Shown here: in pieces, positions 27,523 through 52,333 of the stretch | Layout: each line of letters begins with the position of its first letter | How positions within the stretch are numbered: the first letter of the stretch is position 1 | Assembly (NCBI GenBank): GCA_035310805.1 | Contig: DATGDO010000245.1 | Coordinates: 1 to 52,513 of the forward strand | DNA length: 52,513 bases | DNA from: Solirubrobacterales bacterium | GTDB taxonomy: Bacteria; Actinomycetota; Thermoleophilia; Solirubrobacterales; 70-9 | Direction of reading: 5' to 3' | Notes under the pieces: model-generated | The model's input: only the letters and a program-made list of their open reading frames with translations | What the model was told of the DNA's origin: nothing | Database searches by the model: none | Translations under genes and position numbers: made by a program

Positions 27523-29091
27523 CTAGGCGAAGGCGACGGCGCCGCCCCGGCGCGGGTCGCCGCCGCCGCTCAGCTCACCGCTGGCGGGATCCCTGGCGAC
27601 GGCCTGGACGCCGCCGAAGTAGAGGTTCTTGCGCTTCCATCGAACGACCGGGACTCCGCGTCGCTCGAGGTCATCCAGTTCATCGTCGTCGACCCCCGGC
27701 TCGGCCTGGACGGTGCCGGCCTCGAAGTGAAGGCGGCCGGCGATCACCGCTTCCCTTGCGTCCATCCCCTGGTCCAGCACCCTGACGGCGGTCTGCAGGA
27801 TTGCCGAGCGGATCCGGTTCGAGCCGGCGCTGCCCAGGCCGAGGACGACCTCTCCGTCGCGCAGCGCCAGCGTCGGCGACATCATCGAGCTCACCCGCCG
27901 CCCGGGAGGGATCCGGTGGAAGCCGTGGGGATTGAGGTCCTCCTCGCCGAGCATGTTGTTGACGTGCACCCCGGTCCCGGGCACGACGACCCCGGAGCCG
28001 GTCCCGTTCGAGCAGGTGACCGTCGCGCAGTTCCCGTCGGCGTCGAGCACAGCGACGTGGGTGGTGGACCCGAGCCGGTCCTCCGGATGATCGGGTCCGC
28101 CGGCCCCGCCGTGGCCCCCGGCCCACTCGCCGCCCCGGATCCGGGCGGCGACCGCGTCGAGGTCCGAGGCGAGGAAGCGCTTCACGTAGCCCTCGTCGTG
28201 GAGGCCCTCGTGGAAGTCGTCCGAGCGCCGCGCATTGGCAGCCTCCGAGACCGCGACGATCTCCTCCACCCCGCTCCTCCCGAGGCGTTCCAGCAGCCCC
28301 AGCGAGTAGCCGATCAGGATTCCGCCGGACGACGGCGGCGGGTTGGTGAGCACCTGGTGCCCCCGGAAGCGCGCCGTAACGGGTTCGCGCTCGATCGGCT
28401 CATACGCAGCCATGTCGCCCATCCCCAACGTCCCACCGCGCTCGCGGACCCAATCGCAGACCGCCCTCGCCGTCTCCCCGCGATAGAACGGCTCCGACCC
28501 CTCCGCCGCGAAGCGCTCGAGCGCCTCCGCCATCTCCGGGTAGTGGAAGGTGTCGCCCTCGACCAGTTGCCTGCCCGCGGGCGTGTAGAGGGCGGCCGAT
28601 TCCGGGCTGGAGGTCAGGATCGGGTGCAGGATCTCGTGGAAGTACTCCGCCTCGGCCGTCAGCAGGACGCCCTCGCGCCCGAGCTCGATGCCCGGCTTCG
28701 CGAGCCGCTCGAGCGGCACGGAGCCGAAGCGCCGCCAGACGTGCTCGAGTCCGGCGGGCGTCCCCGGCACCCCGCAGGACGCCGCGCCACAGTTGAAGGT
28801 CTGCGGCGTCTCGTCGAAGTAGACGGGGATCGGCAGGAGCTCGGCCCCCCGCTCCGCCCCGTCGGCGCCGCCCGCCGCAACGAAGAAGTCGATCAGGGTG
28901 TCCCCGCCGCCCTCGTGAACCATCATGAAGCCGCCCGCCCCGAAGCCCGTCAGCTGGCTCTCGCAGACGAACGAGGTGAGCACGGCGCAGATCGCCGCGT
29001 CCACGGCGTTGCCCCCTTCACGCAGGACCTGCGCGCCGGCCTCCGCGGTCAGGGGATGTCCCGCAGCGACGACTCCGTTCAGCTCTGGCAT
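27523..29091 (-). CDS. ggt: gamma-glutamyltranspeptidase
   Basis: 522 aa with the autoprocessing/nucleophile region (GSTTHVAVLDADGN) and NNMLGEEDLNP. Confidence 0.9.
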   Translation of the reverse strand: MPELNGVVAAGHPLTAEAGAQVLREGGNAVDAAICAVLTSFVCESQLTGFGAGGFMMVHEGGGDTLIDFFVAAGGADGAERGAELLPIPVYFDETPQTFNCGAASCGVPGTPAGLEHVWRRFGSVPLERLAKPGIELGREGVLLTAEAEYFHEILHPILTSSPESAALYTPAGRQLVEGDTFHYPEMAEALERFAAEGSEPFYRGETARAVCDWVRERGGTLGMGDMAAYEPIEREPVTARFRGHQVLTNPPPSSGGILIGYSLGLLERLGRSGVEEIVAVSEAANARRSDDFHEGLHDEGYVKRFLASDLDAVAARIRGGEWAGGHGGAGGPDHPEDRLGSTTHVAVLDADGNCATVTCSNGTGSGVVVPGTGVHVNNMLGEEDLNPHGFHRIPPGRRVSSMMSPTLALRDGEVVLGLGSAGSNRIRSAILQTAVRVLDQGMDAREAVIAGRLHFEAGTVQAEPGVDDDELDDLERRGVPVVRWKRKNLYFGGVQAVARDPASGELSGGGDPRRGGAVAFA

Positions 29092-29124: not shown

Positions 29125-30756
29125 CTAGTTCTCGGGGCTGAATTCCGGCACGTCGAGGACGCGACCGTCCAGCCGGCGCGGCTGGGTCGGTGGACGATCA
29201 CGGGGATCGCGCCCCGAGCCCCCGTCGCCGTAGAGCTCCTCGGCGCTGCCCGAACGCGGTCGGGGCGTCCCGCTGCCGCGCCAGTCGCCGACCGGGTCGG
29301 AGTAGCGCTCCGGCCGCAGCGCCGCGTCCCTGTCCGGGGTGCGCGGCTCGCGCGGCTCGGTGCGCCGGTCAAACCGGTGACTGCGGACATCAGCCGGATC
29401 GAAGCGGGTGGCGATCACGGTGATCCACACCTCCTCGCCGATGTCCTCGTCCACGCTGGCCCCGAAGATGATGTTCGCCTCGGGGTGGGCAGCCTCCTTG
29501 ACGACCGCCGCGGCCTCGCTCGCCTCGATCAGGGAGAGGTCGGGTCCACCGGTGATCGAGAGCAGCATGGAGCGCGCGCCCTCGACGGAGGTCTCGAGCA
29601 GCGGTGAGGAGACCGCCTTCTCGGCGGCCAGGGTCGCCCTGTGCTCGCCGACGCCCATGCCGATGCCGAGGATCGCGTTGCCCGCCTCGATCATCGTGGT
29701 GCGCACATCGGCGAAGTCGAGGTTGATCAGACCCGGCAGCATCACCAGGTCGGAGATTCCCTGCACGGCCTGGCGCAGGACGTCGTCGGCGACCCGGAAG
29801 GCGTCGACGATCGAGGTGCGTCGCTCGAGGATCGTCAGCAGGCGCTCGTTGGGGACGACGATCATCGTGTCGACCTCTTTGCCCAGCGCGGCGATCCCCT
29901 CCTCGGCCTGAGCGGCGCGACGGGCGCCCTCGAAAGCGAAGGGCCTGGTGACGGCAGCGACCGTCAGCGCGCCGATGTCTCGGGCCAGCTTCGCAACCAC
30001 CGGGGCGGCCCCGGTGCCGGTGCCGCCTCCGGAGCCGGAGGCGAGGAACACCATGTCGGATCCCTTGAGCAGCTCCTTGATCTTGTCCTGCTCCTCGAAG
30101 GCCGCGCGGTAGCCCACCCGGGGATCCGAGCCGGAGCCCAGGCCGCGAGTCAGCTCTGCGCCGATGTGAAGCGTGACGTCGGCCCTCGAGCTCTGCAGCG
30201 ACTGAAGATCCGTGTTGATCGCTACGAACTCCACGCCGGGTAGCTCGGCCTCGACCATCCTGTTGACCGCGTTGACGCCGGCCCCGCCGATGCCGACCAC
30301 CCGCAGGACGGCCTGGTGCGTTCTCGGCACAACGGGCTGCCGGGCGGCGGGCTGATCGGTCGAGGGCTCCTCGCGGCCGAACCTCGGCCGCCGCTCTCTG
30401 CCGGGTCCGCCCATCAGGCGCTCCAGGCCCTCGTGGTGGATCTCGGGGGCTTCGACGACCACCTTCGCCCCGGCAACGGGCTCCGGCGGGGTCGGCTCGG
30501 GAACCGGCTGCGGGCCGGGAAGCGGCTCGGGCACGGGATCGGGGGTCGGCTCCGGAACGGGCTCCGGGGTGGGCTCCGGAACGGGCTCGGGAGTAGGCGT
30601 CTCCCCGACGGGCGCCTCGACGGCGACCTCAACCTGGCCGGCGCCACCGTCGTTGGCGGTGACCCTGACCTGATCGGGCGCGACCGACTCGTCGGTCGTG
30701 CGGAAGAGATCGGCGAGGGGGCCCTCGCGCATGCTGGCGCGCTTGTTACGAGCCAT
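29125..30756 (-). CDS. ftsZ: FtsZ with ~150-aa N-terminal extension
   Basis: Core motifs LRVVGIGGAGVNAVNRM, tubulin signature GSGGGTGTGAAP, NTDLQSL, and C-terminal peptide LDVPEFS. ATG 30756 overlaps the parA stop by 11 nt. The extension keeps high third-position G/C. The alternative internal ATG is at 30414. Confidence 0.85.
   Translation of the reverse strand: MARNKRASMREGPLADLFRTTDESVAPDQVRVTANDGGAGQVEVAVEAPVGETPTPEPVPEPTPEPVPEPTPDPVPEPLPGPQPVPEPTPPEPVAGAKVVVEAPEIHHEGLERLMGGPGRERRPRFGREEPSTDQPAARQPVVPRTHQAVLRVVGIGGAGVNAVNRMVEAELPGVEFVAINTDLQSLQSSRADVTLHIGAELTRGLGSGSDPRVGYRAAFEEQDKIKELLKGSDMVFLASGSGGGTGTGAAPVVAKLARDIGALTVAAVTRPFAFEGARRAAQAEEGIAALGKEVDTMIVVPNERLLTILERRTSIVDAFRVADDVLRQAVQGISDLVMLPGLINLDFADVRTTMIEAGNAILGIGMGVGEHRATLAAEKAVSSPLLETSVEGARSMLLSITGGPDLSLIEASEAAAVVKEAAHPEANIIFGASVDEDIGEEVWITVIATRFDPADVRSHRFDRRTEPREPRTPDRDAALRPERYSDPVGDWRGSGTPRPRSGSAEELYGDGGSGRDPRDRPPTQPRRLDGRVLDVPEFSPEN
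30478..30600 (-). repeat. imperfect tandem DNA repeats encoding a Pro/Glu linker (TPTPEPVPEPTPEPVPEPTPDPVPEPLPGPQPVPEPTPPEPV) inside ftsZ
   Basis: Read directly: reiterated ggctccggaacggg / ggctcggg units on the plus strand, with a PEPxP periodicity in translation. Confidence 0.8.
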
Positions 30757-31726
30757 GGGTGAGGACCTCCTTTGCGAGCTCGCGGTAGGCACCCGCGGCC
30801 TTCGACTTCGGGTCGTACTTGAGGACCGAGGTGCCGCGGACCGGCGCCTCGGCGAACTTGATCGCCTTGCGGATCCGCGACTTGAAGACGAGCTCCCCGA
30901 AGTTCTCCTCGAGGATCTCCACGGCCTCCTTGGCATGGACGGTCCGCGAGTCGAGCATCGTCGGGAGGATGCCCTCGATCTCGACGCCGGGGTTGAGGTT
31001 CTCCCGGATCATCTGAAGCGTGTTCTGAAGCTGCACGAGGCCGCGCATCGAGAGGTACTCGCACTGGACCGGCACGATCACCTTGTCGGCGGCGGTCAGG
31101 GCGTTGACGGTCAGCAGCCCGAGGCTGGGCGGCGTGTCGATGCAGACGAAGTCGTAGTCGTTGCGGACGCCCTCCAGGCCCTTCTGCAGCGCCCGCTCGC
31201 GCCCGATCTGGGTGCTCATCGCGATCTCGGCGCCGGCCAGGTCGATCGAGGCGACGGCGACGTCGATCTCGCGCTCGACGATCACCTCGCTGATCGGGAT
31301 CCGGTGGACGAGCACGTCGAACATGCTCTTCTCGACCTTGTCGGGGTCGACGCCCTGGCTCATCGTCAGGTTGCCCTGCGGGTCCATGTCGACGGCGAGG
31401 ACGCGATGACCGGACTCCTTGAAGGCGACGGCGAGGTTCAGCGCCGTGGTCGTCTTGGCGACGCCGCCCTTCTGGTTCGCGAAGGCGATCACCTTGGCCG
31501 GGCCCTTGTTCTTGGGGGAATCGGGCTGCTTGGCCGGGCCGGAGGCGCCATTCGGAGCGTCGCTCCTGGGCTCGTCGGCGGCCTTGCCGTTGGTGGACCC
31601 AGACTCGGCCTGATCGGCCTCGCCTGAATCCTTTCTCTCAGGCGTCGGCGCGACCAGGTCCTCGGGCTTCATACGCCCCGCCTCGTCGACGGTTTGGGTG
31701 ACGTGCTTTCGGAGAAATCTGGGCAT
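30746..31726 (-). CDS. orphan ParA/Soj-family ATPase (PldP-like) with low-complexity N-terminal extension
   Basis: Deviant Walker A NQKGGVAKTTTALNL, plus VLAVDMDPQGN and FVCIDTPPSLG. No parB gene is adjacent. The alternative start ATG 31672 has GAGG upstream. Confidence 0.85.
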   Translation of the reverse strand: MPRFLRKHVTQTVDEAGRMKPEDLVAPTPERKDSGEADQAESGSTNGKAADEPRSDAPNGASGPAKQPDSPKNKGPAKVIAFANQKGGVAKTTTALNLAVAFKESGHRVLAVDMDPQGNLTMSQGVDPDKVEKSMFDVLVHRIPISEVIVEREIDVAVASIDLAGAEIAMSTQIGRERALQKGLEGVRNDYDFVCIDTPPSLGLLTVNALTAADKVIVPVQCEYLSMRGLVQLQNTLQMIRENLNPGVEIEGILPTMLDSRTVHAKEAVEILEENFGELVFKSRIRKAIKFAEAPVRGTSVLKYDPKSKAAGAYRELAKEVLTHGS

Positions 31727-31789
31727 CTATGGGCGCTATTTCGCAGGCGAGGCCCGCTTTCCTTCTCCTGGTTGGAAGAATCCGCGCGC

Positions 31790-32710
31790 ATGACTGATCT
31801 GCTCGACAAGCGATTGGCCTTCGTCACCGGCAAGGGCGGCGTCGGCAAGTCGACGATCTCGATTGCCCTCGGCCTCGCCGCGGCCTCGCGAGGCATGCGG
31901 ACGATCGTCTGCGAGATCGGCGGCCAGGAGACAGCCTCACGCATGTTCAGGCGCGCGGAGGTGGGCTTCCACGAGGTCGAGGTGGCGGACAACCTCTGGG
32001 CTATTTCGATCGACCCCGACCACTCCCTGCGCGAGTACCTGCTCTTGCAGCTCAAGGTCCGCGCGATGCGCGACATGCTGGTGCGCTCCAAGATCTTCAA
32101 CTACCTGGCGGCCGCCACGCCCGGGCTCAAGGAGCTGGTCACGATCGGAAAGATCTGGGAGCTCGCCCAGCCCGACCGCCGGGTGAAGAAGGCACAGGAC
32201 TACGACATCGTGATCGTCGACGCGCCGGCGACCGGCCACGGCATCGGTTTCCTGCAGACGCCGCGCACGTTCGCGGGGATCGCCCGGGTCGGACCCGTCC
32301 ACTCACAGGCGCAGGAGCTCGACCGGTTCATCACCGACCACGACGCGACCGGCGTCGCGATCGTCTCGCTGCCCGAGGAGATGCCGGTCAACGAGTCGGC
32401 CTCCCTCGAGCAGCAGCTCACCGACGACATCGGGATGTCCGTCGACCGCGTCTACATGAACGCGCTCTACCCGGAGCGCTTCGCCAAGGACGAGGCCTCC
32501 CAGCTCGAGAGGGCGCTCGAGCAGGCCGACGGGCCCGCCCGGGCAGCCGTGCGGGCCGCGCTCTCGGAGTACCGCCGCTCGCGCTCCCAGCGGGCGCAGC
32601 TGCAGCGCCTGAAGCGGGCGGTCTCCTCCCCCGTCAAGACCCTGCCATTCATCTTCAAGCCCTCCCTCGACGTGCCCTCCCTGGAGCGCCTGGCTGGGGC
32701 CCTGGTCTGA
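31790..32710 (+). CDS. ArsA/Get3-like P-loop ATPase (first of pair)
   Basis: TGKGGVGKSTISIALG and DIVIVDAPATGHG. It resembles the first member of the conserved actinobacterial ArsA-like pair (Rv3679-like). Confidence 0.75.
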   Translation: MTDLLDKRLAFVTGKGGVGKSTISIALGLAAASRGMRTIVCEIGGQETASRMFRRAEVGFHEVEVADNLWAISIDPDHSLREYLLLQLKVRAMRDMLVRSKIFNYLAAATPGLKELVTIGKIWELAQPDRRVKKAQDYDIVIVDAPATGHGIGFLQTPRTFAGIARVGPVHSQAQELDRFITDHDATGVAIVSLPEEMPVNESASLEQQLTDDIGMSVDRVYMNALYPERFAKDEASQLERALEQADGPARAAVRAALSEYRRSRSQRAQLQRLKRAVSSPVKTLPFIFKPSLDVPSLERLAGALV

Positions 32711-33855
32711 TGCCGACGATCACCGACATCGTCGAGGGACGCGGGATCTGCATCTGCGCGGGCTCGGGGGGCGTGGGCAAGACCACGACCTCGGCCGCGC
32801 TGGCCGCCGGCCTCGCGGCGCGGGGCCAAAAGGTCGCCGTGCTCACGATCGACCCAGCCAAGCGCCTTGCGGACTCCCTGGGCCTGACCGAGCTCGAGAA
32901 CACGCCCAGGCGCGTCGACCCGAAGCTCTTCGAGCGCGCCGGCATCGAGATGCAGGGCGAGCTCTGGGCGATGATGCTCGACGCCAAGGCGACCTTCGAC
33001 GAGCTCGTGCGCAAGCACGCGCCGGACGCCGAGACGCGCGACCGAATACTCGAGAACCGGATCTACCGGCAGCTCTCCAACGCCTTGGCGGGCTCTCAGG
33101 AGTACATGGCGATGGAGAAGCTCTTCGAGCTCCACCAGGAGGGCCGTTACGACTTCCTCGTCCTCGACACGCCGCCCTCGCGCAACGCCCTCGACTTCCT
33201 CGACGCTCCGAAGCGGCTCACCCAGTTCATCGAGGGGCGCGGGATGCAGATGTTCATGAGGCCGACGGGCTTTGCGACCAAGGTCGTCGGCCGCGGCAGC
33301 TCGATGGCCTTCAGCGTGCTGAAGCGGGTGACCGGCCTCGACATGCTCTCCGACCTGAGCGAGTTCTTCCAGGCCTTTAGCGGCATGGTCGACGGTTTCC
33401 GGGAGCGGGCCAAGCGGGTCTCGGAGCTGCTCGCCGACCCGGCGACCACCTTCGTCGTCGTCTGCGGACCGCAGGGCGAGCCGATCGAGGAGGCCGTCTA
33501 CTTCCACCGCAAGCTGGTCGAGGCCAGGCTGCCGGTTGGCGGCGTGATCGTCAACAAGGTGCACTACGAGGCCGAATCGGAGGCGGAGGGCGAGGCCGAG
33601 GCTGACCTCCACGGCCTCCTCGACGACGACCTGGCCGAACGGGTCGCGCACAACTTCTCCGACTACCAGGCGCTCGCCCAGCGTGACGCCAAGAACGTCC
33701 GCCACCTCGAGCGCGAGCTCAATCCAAGGGCCGTGATCCGGGTCCCCTATCTGGACGAGGACGTGCACGATCTCGACGCCCTGCTCAAGATCGATCGCTA
33801 CCTGTTCGCGACCGAGGAGCAGCGCGAGGAGCTGGCGGCCTCAGGCGCTGCGTAG
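32710..33855 (+). CDS. ArsA/Get3-like P-loop ATPase (second of pair)
   Basis: GSGGVGKTTTSAALA, TIDPAKRLADSLGL and FLVLDTPPSRNALDFL. Its ATG overlaps the upstream stop (TGATG). Rv3680-like. Confidence 0.75.
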   Translation: MPTITDIVEGRGICICAGSGGVGKTTTSAALAAGLAARGQKVAVLTIDPAKRLADSLGLTELENTPRRVDPKLFERAGIEMQGELWAMMLDAKATFDELVRKHAPDAETRDRILENRIYRQLSNALAGSQEYMAMEKLFELHQEGRYDFLVLDTPPSRNALDFLDAPKRLTQFIEGRGMQMFMRPTGFATKVVGRGSSMAFSVLKRVTGLDMLSDLSEFFQAFSGMVDGFRERAKRVSELLADPATTFVVVCGPQGEPIEEAVYFHRKLVEARLPVGGVIVNKVHYEAESEAEGEAEADLHGLLDDDLAERVAHNFSDYQALAQRDAKNVRHLERELNPRAVIRVPYLDEDVHDLDALLKIDRYLFATEEQREELAASGAA

Positions 33856-33861
33856 CTAAAG

Positions 33862-35547
33862 CTAGCCGCTCTGCTTCCTCTCGTACCGAAGCTCGCCGAC
33901 GGTCCAGTCGGTCGCGTCCGGGACCGGGAAGAGGTAGCGGACCCGGTCCTTCGAGGGCTCGCGGTCCGCGCTGCGATTGCGCCTTGGTCTCGCGAAGGCG
34001 GGCCATTCGGGCTCGCCGTCGCCAGCACTGAACCAATCGGCTCGATCCCCGGGCTCGGGCTGGGTCGTGGCGCGAGGCTCGCTCTCGGCTCCCATTAGAC
34101 GCGGTAGTTCGACGTCATCGACGACGATCCTCGTCGTCGGTTGCCGATCCTCCTCGCCTGCCCGGACGGAGAAATCGTCCAATTGGTTCGTCTCCGGCCC
34201 AGTTTCCTCTTCGGCCTTGTGAACGGAGATCTCGTCATCGGCGAGGTGGCCGTCGGCGATCGCCGAGAGCTCGAGCTTCTCCTCGGGCATCTCGGGCAGG
34301 CGCCACTCGGCTGTCTCCCCGATACCCGGAGTCTCGACGTGCGTCGCCGAGAGACCGTGGGAGAGCAGGACCTCATCGGCGGCGGCCCGCAGGTCTCCTC
34401 CCAGCTCCCCGGTCGCGAGACCCTTGAGCAGCCGCCGCAGCAGCTCCTCCAGCTCCGCGATCACATCCAGCGGCGAGGCGCCGGCCGCTGGCCGGTAGCG
34501 CCCGCCGCTCATCAGCTTTCTCTCGATCGCCAGGCCGCGCTCGACGGTGACCCGGCCCTGCTCGCGCTCGTTTGGCTCGCAGGCGAGCGCCGCGACGCGG
34601 GCGGACAGCGAGGTCCTCGCCGGACCGCCACCCTCCAGCAGGCCCCGGAGGGCGAGCAGGTAATCGCTCAGCGCCTCGATCAGTGATCCGCGCTCGGCTC
34701 CCAGCTCGAATCGGGATGCCGCCCAGTCGAGCTGGGGAACCCGCGAGCCCCGTTCGGCGAGCATGCGCGAGAAGCTCTCCAGCTCGGCGACCTCGTTGCC
34801 GGTCAGCCGGTAGCCGCCCTGGCGGGGGCGGCCGACGCCGGTGCCGAAGCGCTCCCAGCCGCCGGAGCGCCTCGCCCAGCCGTGGGAGGCGAGCCCGACC
34901 GCACCTGGCCTGAACAACCTCATGGTGCGAAGGGCGCGGCGAAGGTCGTCGGCCACCGCGGCGGCCGGGGCGACCGCGGCCAGTCCGCAGCTCAGGCAGG
35001 CGAGAAAGCCCGGCTTCCCCCGTCCCCCGGAGCGGGTTGCCTCGACCGCGTCGAGTGGCGCGTCCTCGACCAGGTCGGCGCGCACGATTCGAACCCCGTC
35101 GAGCTCGATCTCGTCCTTCGGCATGTGGAAGCCGACCAGCGGGACGATCACCTCACCGGCCGGCGTGGCCTCCTCCGAGTCCGACCGGATCATCGAGAGG
35201 ACCCCGTCGATCGCGCCGCGCAGCCTGTCTCCGGCCACGTCGAACTCGGCCTTGCCCTGCCAGAGGCCGACCATGAAGCCGATCGCGGCATCCTCGCCCG
35301 CGATCTCACGCACCTCAACGAAGGCCTCCAGGCGGCGCAGCTCGGCCAGATGGCGCTCGATGAACTGCCCCGTCAGGGGGGCGTAGGAGAACATCGGCAG
35401 CGGCCCGTCGTCTGAGGGCTCGAGGTCGAAGGGCATCTCCGCCCCGCTCGCGAGCAGCTCCTCGAAGAGGTCGGCCGCCTCCACCGCGAGGCGCCTCAGC
35501 GCCTCCTCGAGCCTGTCCGTCGTGCTCTCGAGCATCGTCACGCGCAC
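33862..35547 (-). CDS. large hypothetical protein (561 aa), no recognisable domain, acidic disordered C-terminal third
   Basis: Long ORF with coding-like third-position G/C and a GTG start (ATG 35535 is the alternative). No motif I can assign. Confidence 0.55.
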   Translation of the reverse strand: MRVTMLESTTDRLEEALRRLAVEAADLFEELLASGAEMPFDLEPSDDGPLPMFSYAPLTGQFIERHLAELRRLEAFVEVREIAGEDAAIGFMVGLWQGKAEFDVAGDRLRGAIDGVLSMIRSDSEEATPAGEVIVPLVGFHMPKDEIELDGVRIVRADLVEDAPLDAVEATRSGGRGKPGFLACLSCGLAAVAPAAAVADDLRRALRTMRLFRPGAVGLASHGWARRSGGWERFGTGVGRPRQGGYRLTGNEVAELESFSRMLAERGSRVPQLDWAASRFELGAERGSLIEALSDYLLALRGLLEGGGPARTSLSARVAALACEPNEREQGRVTVERGLAIERKLMSGGRYRPAAGASPLDVIAELEELLRRLLKGLATGELGGDLRAAADEVLLSHGLSATHVETPGIGETAEWRLPEMPEEKLELSAIADGHLADDEISVHKAEEETGPETNQLDDFSVRAGEEDRQPTTRIVVDDVELPRLMGAESEPRATTQPEPGDRADWFSAGDGEPEWPAFARPRRNRSADREPSKDRVRYLFPVPDATDWTVGELRYERKQSG

Positions 35548-36100: not shown

Positions 36101-36682
36101 GTGGACAGGGGCAAGGGCGAGGACTTCGAGACGATCGACGGCGTCCGGCTGTGCGTCCGCCCGATCACCCCGGAGGACAAGCTCGCGCTCGTGGGCGCCT
36201 TCGAGCATCTCAGCCAGGAGTCCGTCTACAAGCGCTTCCTGGCCCCCGTCAAGCGCCTCACGGAGAGCGAGCTCGCCTACCTCACCGAGCTCGATCACGA
36301 GGCGCACGAGGCGCTGGTCGCGGTCACCGAGGCGGACGAGATCGTCGGGGTGGCCCGCTACGTCTGCGAGCTCGAGGACCCCGGTCGGGCCGAGGTCGCG
36401 GTCACGGTTGCGGACGAGTGGCAGGGCCGCGGGGTCGGCACCGCCCTGCTGCAGATGCTGGCGAGGCTCGCCGGGGAGAACGGCGTCGAGCACTTCACCG
36501 GCGTCTGCCTGGCCGAGAACAGGGAGATGCTCCAGCTCTTCGACGAGCTGGGGCCCACCACCCGGCGTCGCTCCGACGGCGAGGTGATCGAGGTCGAGGT
36601 CACCCTGCCGGCGAGGGCGACGCACGCGATCCGCCCCGCGCTGCGGGCGGCCGCCAGGGCGCGGAAGAGCTCAGCCGACTAA
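36101..36682 (+). CDS. GNAT family N-acetyltransferase
   Basis: GGAGGAGGGA lies ~10 nt before GTG 36101. GNAT motif A ([24 protein letters not shown]). Confidence 0.75.
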
Positions 36683-37779
36683 GCGACTTCGCGGAGCTTC
36701 TGCGCTTCCGCCAGCGACTGCAGCTTCTTGAGCGACTGGTTCTCGATCTGCCGGATCCGCTCGCGGGTGACGTTGAAGGTGCGGCCGACCTCGTCCAGGG
36801 TGCGCGGATGCTCGCCCCCGAGCCCGTAGCGAAGCTCGAGCACGCGACGCTCGCGGTAGGAGAGGTTCTCGAGGGCTTCCTTCAACGCCTCCTTGGTGAG
36901 CAGCTCCGCGGCGCGCTCGAAGGGAGACTCGGCACGCTCATCGGCGATGAACTGGCCGAACTCCGACTCCTCCTCGTCGCCGACCGGCTTCTCCAGCGAG
37001 ACCGGGGCCTGCGCCGAGCGCTTGATCGAATCGACCTCCTCGGGCTCGATGCCGGTGACCTCGGCGATCTCCTCCGGAGTGGGCTCGCGGCCCAGCTCGG
37101 TGACCAGCTTGCGCTCCGCGCGCCCGATCTTGTTCAGCTTCTCGACCACGTGGACCGGGATGCGGATGGTCCGCGCCTTGTCGGCGAGCGCACGGGCGAT
37201 CGCCTGGCGGATCCACCAGGTGGCGTAGGTCGAGAACTTGAACCCCTTGCGGTAGTCGAACTTCTCAGCGGCTCGAACCAGACCGAGCGTGCCCTCCTGG
37301 ATCAGATCGAGGAAGGGCAGGCCCTGGTTGCGGTAGTTCTTGGCGATCGAGACCACCAGCCGGAGGTTCGACTCCACCATCTTCTGCTTGGCGTCGAGGT
37401 CGCCACGCTCGATGCGCTTCGCGAGCTCGACCTCCTCGGCGGCGGTGAGCAGCCTGACCTTGCCGATGTCCTTGAGGAAGAGCTGCAGGGAATCGGTGGT
37501 CATGTCCGGCTTCAGGTCGAGCGCCTTCTGGCGCTTGCGACCGCGCTTGCCGTCGGAGCGCTCGTTCTCGGCGGCGGCCTTCTGGGCCGGGTCGAGGTCC
37601 TCGACCAGCTCGATGCCGTTCTTCTCGAGGTGCCCGTAGAGGTCCTCGACGTCGGATTCGTCGAGCTCGACCTCGGACACTGCGCTGGCGACGTCGCCGA
37701 AGGTGAGGACGCCGAGCTGCTGGCCTCTGGTGACCAGCGTCTTTACTTCTTCAAGCTCTTGGATCTCCGCTACCAGCAT
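36679..37779 (-). CDS. principal (group 1/2) RNA polymerase sigma factor, HrdB/SigA-like
   Basis: Regions 1.2 to 4.2 are present ([70 protein letters not shown]). ATG 37779 was chosen, with AGGAAGGAAGAG upstream. Confidence 0.9.
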
Positions 37780-37909
37780 TCGCCTACGCTCTTCCTTCCT
37801 GGCTGTCTTTCGGTTTCCTGGCTGTAGGTCCGTGTACCTGACTCTCGGGGGACCTGAACTCATCTCCCCCGCTGACGAAAACCCTTACTCCATCCCCCTC
37901 AGAGGCCAC

Positions 37910-41653: not shown

Positions 41654-42607
41654 TCAGGCCGCCCTGGCCAGCGAGAGCGCGTAGAGGCCGTCGGAGTCGG
41701 TCCACCAGTCGGTCAGCTCGAGACCGGCCTCGGCGTAGATTCCCTCCAGCCCCGGCCGAAGGAACTTGGTGGAGATCTCAGTTCGCATCTCCTCGCCGGC
41801 GCCGAACGGCACCTGCATGTCGAGCCCGGAGACGTTGACCACCTGGTTGGCCTGCGAGCGCAGCCTGATGTCGACCCAGAGGTTCTCCGGGTCCCAGCGG
41901 GCCACGTGCTCGAAGGAGTCGAGGTCGAAGTCGGCGCCGAGCTCGCGGTTGAGGACCGAGAGCACGTTCTTGTTGAACTCCGCGGTCACACCCTTGGAGT
42001 CGTTGTAGGCGGCCTCGAGGATCGCCGGGTCCTTGACCAGGTCGGTGCCGAGCAGGAACCGGTCCGCCGGGTCGAGCAGGTTCGCGATGCGGCGCAGGAA
42101 GCCCGCGCGCTGGTGTGGGGCGAAGTTGCCGATCGTGCCCCCGAGCAGGGCGATCACTCTCGGACCGCCGACCGGGACGCGCTCGAGGTCGAACTCGATG
42201 TCGCAGACCAGGCCGCGGACATTGATTCCGTCGTACTCGGCCGCGATCCGCTCGGCCGTCTCACGGGTGATCTCCTCGGAGATGTCGACCGGGCAATACG
42301 TCTCCAGGCAGCCGGCGTCCCTCATCGAGTCGAGCAGGACACGGGTCTTGCGCGCTGAGCCCGAGCCGAGCTCGATCAGGCTCGCCGGGCGGTTGGCCGC
42401 CTCGCAGATCTCCGCCGAGCGGCCCTGCAGGATGGCCCGCTCGCAGCGGGTGGGGTAGTACTCCGCGAGCTCGGTGATCTGCTCGAAGAGCTCCGAGCCT
42501 CGCTCGTCGTAGAAGTAGCGCGGGGAGAGCTCCTTGAAGGGCCTCGTCAGGCCGGCGCGAACGTCCGCGGCCATGCCGGAGAGCGGCCCGCCCGGAGGCA
42601 GGTTCAC
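41654..42607 (-). CDS. egtD: L-histidine N-alpha-methyltransferase (ergothioneine biosynthesis EgtD)
   Basis: ELSPRYFYDERGSELFEQITELAEYYPTRCERAIL, LIELGSGSARKTRVLL, and GTDLVKD...AYNDSKGVTAEFNKN. Confidence 0.85.
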   Translation of the reverse strand: MNLPPGGPLSGMAADVRAGLTRPFKELSPRYFYDERGSELFEQITELAEYYPTRCERAILQGRSAEICEAANRPASLIELGSGSARKTRVLLDSMRDAGCLETYCPVDISEEITRETAERIAAEYDGINVRGLVCDIEFDLERVPVGGPRVIALLGGTIGNFAPHQRAGFLRRIANLLDPADRFLLGTDLVKDPAILEAAYNDSKGVTAEFNKNVLSVLNRELGADFDLDSFEHVARWDPENLWVDIRLRSQANQVVNVSGLDMQVPFGAGEEMRTEISTKFLRPGLEGIYAEAGLELTDWWTDSDGLYALSLARAA

Positions 42608-42742
42608 CTCGACGGTGATGCGGTCGGTGCTTGTCTCGGCGGGAGTTATGTCGGGTCCGATCCTTGGCTGTCCTCGTGCTCGCCCTGGCTTCGGATCAGT
42701 CGTTGGGGCTCGAACGCCTCGGGCCGCCGTGGTGTGATCTGC

Positions 42743-43987
42743 TCATTCGGCATCCCTCGCGCAGCGGATGCCGGAGAAGATCTGCCGACGCTCCGGCAGG
42801 TCCCAGTTACGGAAGCTCGTGCGGATCACGTCGCGACGGGTCGCCCACGCTCCGCCCCGTAGAACCTTGTGGGCGTCGCCGAAGAAGACCTCCGAGTACT
42901 CCGGGTAGGGGAAGGCGGCGAAGCCCGGGTACGCCGTGAAGTCGGAGCTGGTCCACTCCCAGACGTCGCCCAGCATCTGCAACGCCCCGCAAGCGGACGG
43001 CGCATCGCCGTAGGCACCCACCCGCGCGGGGGCGAAGGAGAGCTGGTCGAGGTTTGCCCGCTCGCGGCTGGCTCCCGCGGCGGCCACCTCCCACTCCGCC
43101 TCGCTCGGCAGGCGCTTGCCGGCCCAGCGCGCGAACGCGTCGGCCTCGGGCCAGGAGACGTGGATCACCGGCAGCCGCCGATCGACCTCCTCGGTGCGGC
43201 CCATGGCCGTCCGGACCCAGCTCCCGTCCCCCTCCCGCTCCCAGTACATCGGCGGCTCGGCCCCGGTCTCCTCGAGAAAGACGATGTAGTCGCCGTTGGA
43301 AACGGGGGTACGGTCGATCAGGAAGGAGGCGACCTCGACTCGGTGGCGGGGCCGCTCGTTGTCGTAGGCGAAGCCCTCCGGGCCTGCCCCGATCTCGCGC
43401 TCGCCGCCCTCGACCGGGATCATCTCGGGTCCCTCCGTGACCGGCTCGGCCTCGGCTGAGCCGTCGAGGGCGACCGGCTCGTAGGACTCGACCATCTGCA
43501 GCAGCTGCAGCATCGTCTCGTTGTGCTGCTGCTCGTGCGCGAGCAGCATCTCGTAGACGAAGCCGTCGGCCAGCAGCCGGTCACCGGGATCGAGCTCGAT
43601 CTCGCCGAGCACCTCGAGCGTCCGCTCCCGCACCTGCTCCATGTAGGGGCGGACCTCGTCGGCCCTCAGGATCGGGAGCTCGCCCCGGATCTTCCGCGGC
43701 TGCTCGATCGCGTCGTAGAGCTCGCCCAGGTCGCCCCGCAGAGGCTCGCGGTGGCCGATCCGCCGCACCAGCCAGAGCTCCTCGAAGTTTGCGATGTGGC
43801 CGAGATCCCAGATCAGCGGGCTGAGAATGGGGTCGTATACCCGGTTGAGCTGCTCCTCGGTGAGCGGCTCGATCAGCTCGAGGGTGTGGCGCCGCGCCTC
43901 CTCCAGACGCCCGGCCAGGGCGGCCTTGCGGCCGGAGGCGGGACGAGATCCACCCTCCGTCGTCGGTGCAGCGACCTCCGCGATCAG
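42743..43987 (-). CDS. egtB: ergothioneine sulfoxide synthase EgtB (DinB_2 + FGE-sulfatase domains); start codon non-canonical or unresolved
   Basis: C-terminal FGE-like motifs (GDVWEWTSSDFTAYPGF, RGGAWAT, SFRNWDLPERRQIFSGIRCA). The conserved N-terminus (LNRVYDPILSPLIWDLGHIANFEELWLV) is read in frame upstream of the first GTG (43768). The frame is open back to stop TGA 43988-43990 and contains no ATG/GTG/TTG. Confidence 0.8.
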   Translation of the reverse strand: MIAEVAAPTTEGGSRPASGRKAALAGRLEEARRHTLELIEPLTEEQLNRVYDPILSPLIWDLGHIANFEELWLVRRIGHREPLRGDLGELYDAIEQPRKIRGELPILRADEVRPYMEQVRERTLEVLGEIELDPGDRLLADGFVYEMLLAHEQQHNETMLQLLQMVESYEPVALDGSAEAEPVTEGPEMIPVEGGEREIGAGPEGFAYDNERPRHRVEVASFLIDRTPVSNGDYIVFLEETGAEPPMYWEREGDGSWVRTAMGRTEEVDRRLPVIHVSWPEADAFARWAGKRLPSEAEWEVAAAGASRERANLDQLSFAPARVGAYGDAPSACGALQMLGDVWEWTSSDFTAYPGFAAFPYPEYSEVFFGDAHKVLRGGAWATRRDVIRTSFRNWDLPERRQIFSGIRCARDAE

Positions 43988-51280: not shown

Positions 51281-51366
51281 CCCTAGTGATTCCTCACCCC
51301 TTCCGGGGTGGAGACTCCGCCTGCCGCCTAGAGCTTGCGGATTGCTTGCGCTAGGATGGGATCACG

Positions 51367-51696
51367 ATGAGTCCCGTCCTCACTCCCACCCTGCTCGACC
51401 CGATCGCCGAGACCCTGGAGCTCTCGGAGACCGAGCTGGGTCGCCTCTTCGGCGTCAGCCGCCAGGCGGTCGGGCAATGGCGCGAGCGCGGGGTGCCGTC
51501 GAGCCGGATGGCGAAGGTGGCGACCGTCGCCGCGATCTGCGACCTGCTCCATCACCGGCTGAAGCCGGAGCGCATCCCGGGCATCGCCCGGCGCCCGGCC
51601 GATGCGTACGGCGGCGTCTCGATGCTCGAGATGATCGAAGGCGACCGCCAGGACGAGCTCCAGACGCTGATCCGGCGCTCGTTCGACTGGGCCTGA
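51367..51696 (+). CDS. Xre/MbcA/ParS-type antitoxin (HTH + DUF2384 toxin-binding domain)
   Basis: HTH LSETELGRLFGVSRQAVGQWRERG, and a C-terminal DUF2384-like ADAYGGVSMLEMIEGDRQDEL. Located upstream of a RES-domain gene. Confidence 0.8.
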   Translation: MSPVLTPTLLDPIAETLELSETELGRLFGVSRQAVGQWRERGVPSSRMAKVATVAAICDLLHHRLKPERIPGIARRPADAYGGVSMLEMIEGDRQDELQTLIRRSFDWA

Positions 51697-51766
51697 TGCG
51701 AGGGTCAGGCGAGGGCGCTCCGTCAGGAGTGACCCGTCTCTTGAGGCGCGACCGGTGTAGCGGGGC

Positions 51767-52333
51767 ATGAGGACGATCCGGCGGGGCGGGCCCTACCTGC
51801 GGGTGGCGGACCCCGACTGGCGGGACCCGCTCGACGGGCGCCATGCGGCCCAGCGCGGCGGCCGCTGGAATCCGCCTGAGTCGTTTCCCGTCGTCTACCT
51901 CTGCCGGACCGTCGCGGTGGCGCGCGCCAACGTCTATCGGCTGCTGGAGAGGCAGCCCTACGGCCCTGAGGACCTGCGGCCCGAATCCGCCCCGGTCCTG
52001 GTGCGGACGACGGTGCCCGAGGACCGCTACCTGAACGTGGTCACGGACGCCGGCTGCCGCGACGCCGGGCTGCCCAGGACCTACCCCTATGACAGCCGCC
52101 GCCGAATCGTGTCCCAGCGCCGCTGCCAGCCGATCGGGCTTCGGGCATGGGAGGCGGGGCTGCCGGGCGTCGCGGCGCGCAGCGCAGCGCCGCCTGATGC
52201 GAGGGCGCTCCGCAGGCGAAGCCGGGGAGCGACCCGTTTCATCTTCGAGGAGGAGCTCGCCTACTTCGGCCGCCGGCGCCTGCGGCGGGGAGCCGTGCGC
52301 CCCTTCGAGCGATGGTTCTGGGACCCCCCATGA
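51767..52333 (+). CDS. RES-domain toxin (MbcT/ParT-like NAD+-targeting enzyme)
   Basis: GGRWNPPESFPVVYLC (the R of RES), then a downstream E (RLLERQ/PEDL region) and S (AARSAA) context. 188 aa. An in-frame stop sits 9 nt upstream of the ATG. Confidence 0.75.
   Translation: MRTIRRGGPYLRVADPDWRDPLDGRHAAQRGGRWNPPESFPVVYLCRTVAVARANVYRLLERQPYGPEDLRPESAPVLVRTTVPEDRYLNVVTDAGCRDAGLPRTYPYDSRRRIVSQRRCQPIGLRAWEAGLPGVAARSAAPPDARALRRRSRGATRFIFEEELAYFGRRRLRRGAVRPFERWFWDPP

Follow-up and report, generated by a model that had tools for sequence, protein, structure and literature searches.

An overlapping parA-ftsZ gene pair conserved across Thermoleophilia, and a candidate ParA-binding peptide at the N-terminus of its FtsZ

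Organization of the parA-ftsZ locus

We analyzed a 52,513-nucleotide (nt) stretch of contig DATGDO010000245.1 (assembly GCA_035310805.1), hereafter the window, from a soil actinobacterium of the order Solirubrobacterales (class Thermoleophilia, Actinomycetota). The window contains ftsZ, the gene for the division ring's (Z ring's) tubulin-like protein, as the second gene of an overlapping pair whose first gene encodes a ParA-type ATPase. The two genes and their parts are as follows, with positions given in the coordinates of the window.

30746..31726, minus strand: parA, encoding 326 amino acids, a ParA/Soj-type deviant-Walker-A ATPase with its core at residues 77-326
30746..30772, minus strand: putative translational-coupling junction read from the sequence, comprising the Shine-Dalgarno sequence AAGGAGG, the ftsZ ATG, and the parA stop codon TAA
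29125..30756, minus strand: ftsZ, encoding 543 amino acids, from the ATG at 30756 to the stop at 29125, with an N-terminal extension of about 150 residues
30694..30756, minus strand: FtsZ residues 1-21, the N-terminal peptide MARNKRASMREGPLADLFRTT, a candidate ParA-binding or ParA-activating motif
30304..30693, minus strand: FtsZ residues 22-151, a disordered tether with PEPVPEPTPEP-type repeats (alignment and AlphaFold2 model)
30406-30438, minus strand: FtsZ residues 107-117, a second conserved motif, HHEGLERLMGG, within the tether
29401..30303, minus strand: FtsZ residues 152-452, the GTPase core and C-terminal domain (Pfam Tubulin and FtsZ_C)
29140..29157, minus strand: FtsZ residues 534-539, the C-terminal conserved peptide LDVPEF (translation and alignment)

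The parA stop codon (TAA, 30748-30746) and the ftsZ start codon (ATG, 30756-30754) overlap by 11 nt, exactly as an initial annotation of this DNA had described. The Shine-Dalgarno sequence of ftsZ (30772-30766) is embedded in the parA codons for K-E-V, 9 nt upstream of the ATG. A consensus scan for promoters and terminators between 27300 and 32100 gave no match at 70% GC and is uninformative on an internal promoter.

The initial annotation had also remarked on the absence of a parB gene and of the division and cell wall (dcw) cluster in which ftsZ usually lies, and our searches bear this out. About 60 open reading frames (ORFs) of the window, chosen on their GC content at third codon positions (GC3), were run against Pfam, and none matched dcw proteins (Mur, FtsQ, FtsW, SepF), ParB, or Min domains. 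Likewise, no minC, minE, or Noc genes and no parS site were found within the window. The surroundings are those of an ordinary chromosome, with genes for methylmalonyl-CoA mutase and MeaB, a thiolase, a primary sigma factor, glpX, ergothioneine biosynthesis, and PntAB.

Identity of the FtsZ protein

The FtsZ core had been recognized from VGIGGAGVNAVNRM, GGGTGTG, and LDVPEF, and profile searches agree with that identification. The translation contains VGIGGAGVNAVNRM, GGGTGTGAAP, and a C-terminal LDVPEF; Pfam places Tubulin at residues 152-310 (1.9e-43) and FtsZ_C at residues 359-452 (1.9e-29), and a score of 397.5 bits against the NCBIfam equivalog TIGR00065 (cut-off 295.2) makes the protein a member of the FtsZ equivalog family. 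The GTP-binding motif GGGTGTG and the T7 synergy loop (N-x-D-x-x-D, here LINLDFADV) are both present and are invariant in 40 homologues. The AlphaFold2 (AF2) model gives the GTPase domain a predicted local distance difference test (pLDDT) score of 85-95, and most of the C-terminal domain scores 70-87.

Elsewhere in bacteria, the C-terminal peptide of FtsZ is the docking site for membrane anchors and regulators. Among 20 aligned Solirubrobacterales homologues, LDVPEF has three invariant residues (V536, P537, and E538), and its other three (L534, D535, and F539) reach at least 90% conservation, while the corresponding peptide of a Gaiellales-like clade is LEPPSFL. The FtsZs of Miltoncostaeales (L088, P0396, P0132, and P0284) carry neither an LDVPEF nor a PPSFL-type peptide and end in long acidic tails with motifs such as RVFDVE or NPVT(R/Q)LF. 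Their anchoring partners may differ, given this divergence.

The position of the gene outside a dcw cluster and its unusual extension could point to a second, specialized FtsZ paralog with a ParA of its own, which the initial annotation had raised as an option; a housekeeping ftsZ would then reside in a dcw cluster elsewhere in the genome. We regard this as improbable. The protein scores 100 bits above the equivalog cut-off and retains the GTP-binding and T7 motifs, the C-terminal docking peptide is kept in both the Solirubrobacterales and the Gaiellales-like clade, and identity within the order is high (about 80-90%). In three homology searches, moreover, all FtsZs among the matches listed whose sources name Solirubrobacterales, Miltoncostaea, Thermoleophilia, or Gaiellales were of the parA-linked type, and this was the only type recovered for the class. 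A single metagenome-assembled genome (MAG), MFD02199.bin.2.51, has two complete syntenic blocks on different contigs (L017 and L028), with FtsZs 77% and 83% identical to the query; as both are copies of the same synteny, this is probably a bin mixing two related strains rather than a true duplication. The equivalog score, the intact motifs, the identity within the order, and the sole type recovered for named Thermoleophilia favor a primary FtsZ, and the window protein can be read as the cell-division FtsZ and probably the only FtsZ of this bacterium.

Conservation of the gene pair across Thermoleophilia

We scanned GTDB, taking one genome per species and using patterns specific to this FtsZ type. 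This gave 80 loci, mostly from MAGs of Solirubrobacterales, with FtsZs 54-92% identical to the query. The gene order recovered in these loci by tblastn with the window proteins was that of a 561-residue protein, ArsA2, and ArsA1 divergent from ParA, followed by FtsZ and gamma-glutamyltranspeptidase (GGT). Wherever upstream sequence was retained, parA preceded ftsZ in all 80. The parA stop and ftsZ start overlapped by 8, 11, 14, or 17 nt in 77 of the 78 evaluable loci, and in the same 77 an (a/g)aggagg stood 9 nt before the ftsZ ATG. The one exception, L034, is explained by a frameshift: in it and in L041, both on long-read MAG contigs, the 5' region of ftsZ is frameshifted in what look like assembly errors.

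More distant homologues were sought by searching exhaustively, with HMMER, through 1.84 billion representatives of clusters formed at 50% identity, and the best 150 matches were examined. The N-termini of 30 extended proteins among them were read, and five carry the N-terminal peptide listed above (P0123, P0126, P0131, P0132, and P0138). A sixth match, the fragment P0121, aligns from query residue 1 and was left out of this reading; the others align from their own N-termini, starting at the core or bearing unrelated extensions. All four of the peptide-bearing clusters that were looked up, out of the five, have an overlapping upstream parA. The parA-ftsZ overlaps at the distant loci are listed below.

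L081: 4 nt
L082/L083 (L082 is Gaiellales-like): 17 nt
L086: 4 nt
L087: 14 nt
L088, the cultured Miltoncostaea marina (CP064655.1; ParA WP_217915239.1, FtsZ WP_217915240.1): 4 nt

The FtsZ of M. marina starts MSTRGGRPSMREGPLSELFRR. Searches seeded with P0132 and P0271 place the distant carriers in Miltoncostaeales and Gaiellales, and the sources of carriers, where named, belong to Solirubrobacterales, Miltoncostaeales, or Gaiellales. Of the FtsZs that lack the peptide, P0124 scores best; it shares 86% identity with Kribbella FtsZ, and its gene stands in a classic dcw cluster (ftsI...murD-ftsW-murG-murC-ftsQ-ftsZ-sepF-yggT) that includes no parA. P0125, also without the peptide, has no parA neighbor. 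None of the compared FtsZs encoded away from parA had the peptide.

The initial annotation had allowed that the pairing might be a chance juxtaposition. The neighborhood survey speaks otherwise, with the overlap kept in the 77 loci above and in five distant loci over three orders. Because the flanking genes differ between orders, the conserved unit appears to be parA-ftsZ itself, with ggt a frequent but loosely spaced gene downstream. Judging from these genomes, ftsZ in Thermoleophilia stands outside the dcw cluster as the second gene of a parA-ftsZ pair, and the embedded Shine-Dalgarno sequence together with the 4-17 nt overlap strongly suggests that the two genes are translationally coupled.

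A conserved peptide at the N-terminus of FtsZ

The strongest clue to the role of the pair was absent from the initial annotation. The N-terminal extension of FtsZ is conserved, and it begins with an invariant peptide that resembles those of ParA partners. The class-wide consensus of this peptide is (K/R)xSM(R/H)(E/D)GPLxxLF(R/K). In an alignment of 40 sequences from three orders, no variation is seen at M1, S8, M9, G12, P13, L14, L17, F18, and T21; conservation of R6 and R10 is at least 90%, and after these first 21 residues the next invariant residue is A149. The conservation is local: the FtsZs are 49-66% identical between orders, no higher than their identity to FtsZ of the class Actinomycetes (57-62%).

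Homology searches returned the same picture. The best 120 homologues of the window FtsZ (72-100% identical, 528-555 residues, the named ones from Solirubrobacterales) all have the extension, and the motif is present in 120 of the 120 matches listed. It is also found in 119 of the 120 matches listed for the search seeded with P0132, the remainder being a truncated gene call. In the search seeded with P0271, 105 of the 121 listed matches fit the pattern, another 13 have SMHDGPL, with His in place of Arg, and the last 3 are truncated gene calls. The pattern GPL(A/S/G)xL(F/L/I/M), sought in all six frames of about 1.7 Mb (the 80 loci and the window), was found in ftsZ only.

Among the 80 loci, 14 of the 15 codons for KRASMREGPL(A/S)DLFR vary at the third position, synonymously, whereas 13 of the 15 residues are the same throughout; apart from Ser for Ala in 9 loci and a single case of Ala for Asp, no residue is replaced. 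Synonymous codon change around fixed residues indicates that the peptide is translated and is under strong purifying selection. Since it lies almost wholly downstream of the parA stop codon, the overlap with parA does not explain its conservation. High-GC genomes do yield long spurious extensions of ORFs, and the open frame here continues upstream to 30936, as would be expected if the extension were a gene-calling artifact and the true start of FtsZ lay near the core, at about residue 140. Such an artifact is scarcely credible in view of the codon pattern, the perfect Shine-Dalgarno sequence 9 nt before the ATG at 30756, the GC3 of 0.87 and low GC2 of the extension in this frame, and the motif's place directly after the first Met throughout the three orders.

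The first 10 residues include four Lys or Arg (R3, K5, R6, and R10), and the AF2 model has a helix at residues 13-22, with pLDDT below 50 in the stretches on either side. Values below 50 extend over residues 20-66, 80-108, and 115-147, with a short helix at residues 109-114, and an (F/Y)GR(E/D)EP motif (here FGREEP) stands just ahead of the core. Across the class, the disordered tether is roughly 40-150 residues long, and the distance from peptide to core is about 54 to 173 residues in the representatives examined.

Partners of ParA/MinD ATPases, among them ParB, MinE, ParG, PomX, and McdB, work by way of short N-terminal peptides that are disordered and positively charged; the partner gene usually lies beside that of the ATPase, and the remainder of the partner protein serves the cargo (PMC7993993; PMC10241942). 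The FtsZ peptide has the same attributes, being at the extreme N-terminus, rich in Lys and Arg, in a disordered segment, and encoded beside an ATPase with which it is co-conserved. This analogy suggests a short, basic, amphipathic helix on a flexible tether with the hallmarks of a ParA/MinD partner peptide. We find the strict co-occurrence of peptide and parA persuasive because, in the sequences compared, it has been retained across a deep class while flanking genes and tether change.

Properties of the ParA protein

The upstream gene had been assigned to the deviant-Walker-A ParA/Soj family, and this assignment holds. Its product has the deviant Walker A motif KGGVAKTT, VDMDPQGN (DxDPQ), and the Walker B motif DFVCIDTPP, is a member of the ParA/MinD family, and matches Pfam AAA_31 (4.8e-61, 206 bits), with a further match to CbiA and a partial one to MipZ. 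It does not qualify as MinD: the bacterial MinD model gives 54 bits against a cut-off of 213, and no MinD-type C-terminal membrane helix is present, as the C-terminus (...YRELAKEVLTHGS) ends with the last core helix. The best matches among solved structures are a ParA-like protein of Mycobacterium smegmatis (4PFS, 206 bits) and the ParA of Myxococcus xanthus (8RAY, 199 bits). In Solirubrobacterales, residues 1-75 (31502-31726, minus strand) are a variable low-complexity extension rich in Pro, Ala, Ser, and Lys, which is missing from the Miltoncostaeales and Gaiellales-like orthologues (253-267 residues); the same order also has the longest FtsZ tether.

Residues of M. xanthus ParA (MxParA) with experimentally defined roles (PMC12462528) were mapped onto the window ParA via a HMMER alignment.

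ParB-peptide pocket: MxParA V116, L150, L152, L155, L187, and L192 correspond to I168, L202, L204, V207, M239, and L244
Contacts to ParB R13: MxParA Y81, E82, and D110 correspond to F137, D138, and D162
Contact to ParB R13: MxParA E117 corresponds to A169
Pocket-adjacent residue: MxParA E176 corresponds to R228
DNA binding: MxParA R238 corresponds to K290

The pocket hydrophobics and the basic residue for DNA binding are thus retained, position 290 being Arg in three and Lys in three of six other Thermoleophilia ParAs aligned. The acidic and aromatic cluster by which a canonical Soj contacts ParB is found in part, in that F137, D138, and D162 fit but A169 replaces E117, a residue reported to be invariant among 3800 ParAs (PMC12462528). 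The 4PFS protein also departs at the E117 and E176 positions, with Met and Arg, respectively. A canonical Soj would also have parB beside it; here, the gene overlapping parA is ftsZ. From this mapping, the protein resembles a DNA-binding ParA whose peptide pocket is intact and whose partner specificity has changed, and its differences at the ParB-specificity residues are consistent with a partner other than ParB.

Comparison with known systems

One of the closest parallels is the PomXYZ system of M. xanthus, in which the nucleoid-bound ParA-type ATPase PomZ positions the division site (PMC7993993), a role that we can suggest for the parA-ftsZ pair from sequence alone. PomX activates PomZ through a conserved, positively charged N-terminal peptide (NPEP, residues 1-22) on an Ala/Pro-rich disordered region (PMC7993993). 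The FtsZ peptide has no sequence homology to PomX, however, and the gene order differs. FtsZ is recruited indirectly in M. xanthus, by a 15-MDa PomX/PomY scaffold, whereas here no adaptor is apparent and the peptide is within FtsZ itself.

Chromosome segregation by ParABS offers a second parallel, with the same ATPase fold, the same pocket hydrophobics and DNA-binding basic residue, and a partner encoded immediately downstream of, and here overlapping, parA. The partner in this case is FtsZ instead of a CTPase clamp loaded at parS, the ParA has Ala and Arg in place of E117 and E176, and neither parB nor parS is found within the window.

The orphan ParA-like proteins of actinobacteria (mycobacterial Rv3213c/ParP and Rv1708, and the Corynebacterium PldP) offer a further parallel: 4PFS is the closest solved structure and has E117 and E176 replaced too. 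A link to septum placement has been reported for Rv1708/MSMEG_3743 and for PldP (PMC10482377; PMC3989709). In contrast to the pair described here, the genes for these orphan proteins lie away from ftsZ, and the FtsZ of their hosts has no N-terminal peptide and is still encoded in the dcw cluster. We know of no activating partner for them.

A direct ParA-FtsZ interaction and its alternatives

The initial annotation had suggested a dedicated ParA-FtsZ module, and this remains the best reading of the locus; it rests on the conserved pairing and overlap and is sharpened by the N-terminal peptide. We consider it reasonably probable, though far from certain, that ParA and the FtsZ peptide interact directly and that nucleoid-bound ParA is thereby used for spatial control of the Z ring. 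FtsZ would have acquired an invariant basic N-terminal peptide on a disordered tether, and ParA-ATP dimers would coat the nucleoid. The peptide may dock at the pocket of the ParA dimer interface, the site taken by ParB peptides in canonical systems (PMC12462528). A ParA dimer has two peptide sites, and linked peptides activate it much better than single ones (PMC12462528); with many peptides on each filament, FtsZ polymers should be far better activators than monomers. Polymers would stimulate ATP hydrolysis and the release of ParA. In a ParA gradient, FtsZ would then act as cargo and as ATPase activator at once, and the Z-ring precursor would be a self-activating cargo, a logic like that of PomXYZ minus the PomX/PomY scaffold. 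The Z ring would then be placed relative to the chromosome, at mid-nucleoid or in the gap between nucleoids, and overlapping translation would couple the synthesis of the two proteins.

Several points weigh against a direct interaction. The M. xanthus ParB motif, L11-x-R13-x-L15-x-x-L18-I19, forms a helix in the hydrophobic pocket (PMC12462528), and the FtsZ peptide shares its amphipathic L-x-x-L-(I/F) half (MxParB L15, L18, and I19) with basic residues before it. Upstream of LxxLF the two are unlike, with an intervening Gly-Pro and a different spacing of basic residues (M-R-E-G-P instead of L-G-R-G). The ParB-type pattern of hydrophobics at i, i+4, i+7, and i+8 and a basic residue at i+2 is not matched by M9-R10-E11-G12-P13-L14-A15-D16-L17-F18, in which M9 sits 5 rather than 4 residues before L14 and the basic residue is offset. 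Because the upstream half differs, the FtsZ peptide is an analogue rather than a member of the ParB motif. Since the pocket residues are shared by ParAs at large, their retention is permissive rather than specific evidence. All carriers belong to one clade, so finding peptide and parA together counts, in effect, as only one evolutionary event. Finally, N-terminal FtsZ peptides with roles independent of ParA exist, as in Anabaena, whose FtsZ needs its own peptide for normal polymerization (PMC6175996).

This last case bears on the alternative that parA and ftsZ are merely co-expressed. Coupling would then co-regulate segregation, or another ParA function, with division, and the peptide would serve FtsZ self-assembly, binding to the membrane or an adaptor, or control of degradation. 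The FtsZ of heterocyst-forming cyanobacteria also has a clade-specific, conserved N-terminal extension required for normal function, and its peptide acts on polymerization without any ParA (PMC6175996); that peptide is, however, unrelated in sequence to the one described here and has no linked parA. The ParA of the window is Soj-like and has kept its basic DNA-binding residues, and its closest solved relative, 4PFS, is probably an orthologue of Rv3213c/ParP, a proteasome substrate without known function; these points would favor co-expression alone. Co-expression alone does not readily account for the retention of the stop/start overlap and the peptide together across the class while neighboring genes change, nor for the absence of the peptide from FtsZs not linked to parA or the loss from ParA of residues that canonical ParAs use for ParB. 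We judge this alternative unlikely.

A direct contact could also have the opposite sign. MipZ is a ParA-family regulator that inhibits FtsZ directly, and the ParA described here may be a nucleoid-bound or gradient-forming inhibitor (MipZ- or MinCD-like) or a nucleoid-occlusion factor that captures the FtsZ peptide and blocks Z-ring formation over the chromosome. All evidence for direct contact applies equally to this alternative, and the sequence data do not decide the sign of the regulation. It would also suit the partial Pfam match to MipZ (PF09140, 49.9 bits) and the absence of Min and Noc genes within the window. That match, however, is not full length, covering profile positions 2-141 of 262, and ParA fits the generic AAA_31 far better. 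MipZ of Caulobacter and MinD/MinC resemble the present pair as ParA/MinD-family ATPases controlling where FtsZ polymerizes, yet they are inhibitors acting on the core or C-terminus of FtsZ and are patterned by ParB or MinE. A basic N-terminal peptide on a long tether is the signature of an activator or cargo adaptor and not of an inhibitor target (PMC7993993; PMC10241942). An inhibitory ParA is for these reasons rather doubtful, and we continue to favor FtsZ as a partner and cargo that ParA would position.

Neighboring genes

The genes next to the pair are as follows.

27523..29091, minus strand: ggt, gamma-glutamyltranspeptidase (Pfam 2.1e-100), starting 33 nt downstream of ftsZ
31694-33855, plus strand: a divergent pair of ArsA/Get3-fold ATPases, in genes ending at 32710 and 33855, with best NCBIfam matches to BagA and BagB
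33862-35547, minus strand: a 561-residue protein with no Pfam or NCBIfam match

Downstream, ggt is present in nearly all Thermoleophilia loci, with a gap that ranges from 30 to over 1000 nt and in some loci contains other genes. We considered it as a member of the operon or module and find this doubtful on account of the variable spacing and inserted genes. It is followed by a gene for a Lon-N-domain protein and is an odd but persistent neighbor for a division gene.

Upstream, the ArsA/Get3 fold that the initial annotation had seen in the divergent pair is upheld. The two proteins resemble actinobacterial BagA/BagB (mycobacterial Rv3679/Rv3680), with NCBIfam scores below the equivalog cut-offs. 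That annotation had further drawn attention to three SIMIBI-class ATPases surrounding ftsZ, and we attach no weight to this. The BagAB-like pair adjoins parA in Solirubrobacterales, is separated from it by an M48 peptidase gene in the Gaiellales-like L082, and is not beside parA in Miltoncostaeales, where a two-component system takes its place. The 561-residue protein is syntenic beside the pair in all Solirubrobacterales loci, at 33-95% identity. We rejected the BagA/BagB-like pair and this protein as parts of the module because the adjacency is not preserved in Miltoncostaeales-type loci.

Farther out, a primary sigma factor of the RpoD/HrdB type (36679-37863, minus strand) lies about 5 kb from parA and is 84-99% identical wherever detected among the loci. 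An EgtD-like histidine methyltransferase gene (Methyltransf_33) beside an FGE-sulfatase/EgtB-like gene (41654-43768, minus strand) has the look of a gene pair for ergothioneine biosynthesis. Close to the end of the window (51355-52333, plus strand), a small protein with a weak antitoxin-like match is followed by a RES-domain protein, likely an Xre-RES toxin-antitoxin pair.

Implications for division-site placement

How the Z ring is placed in bacteria without Min or Noc is a long-standing question, especially in Actinomycetota. To our knowledge, all ParA/MinD-type division regulators reach FtsZ via separate adaptors or inhibitors (MinC, PomX/PomY, ParB-MipZ). The initial annotation knew of no described parA-ftsZ arrangement, and in the searchable literature we likewise found neither a parA-ftsZ operon nor an FtsZ with a ParA-partner-like peptide described, nor any study of Thermoleophilia FtsZ; the literature mentioning both Thermoleophilia and FtsZ was unrelated to the pairing. 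What would be new here, if our interpretation holds, is a ParA/MinD positioning system whose partner and cargo are FtsZ itself.

We can extend this only tentatively, to a picture that we would place somewhat short of probable. In Thermoleophilia, the pair may constitute a minimal two-protein system for positioning the division site, in which only polymerized FtsZ is positioned and which stands in for Min, Noc, or PomXYZ-type machinery. It might have arisen when ftsZ left the dcw cluster and gained a ParB-like N-terminal handle.

The idea lends itself to testing, since the motif is about 20 residues long, its key residues are predictable, and the cultured M. marina, with a complete genome, has the arrangement. 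The survey shows that ftsZ has left, throughout the class, a dcw cluster that is otherwise very stable. If true, a direct ParA-FtsZ pair with a built-in partner peptide would be simpler than any such system now known. It would further show that a cytoskeletal polymer can be fitted with the modular N-terminal handle typical of ParA partners, a point of direct use in the design of synthetic positioning systems.

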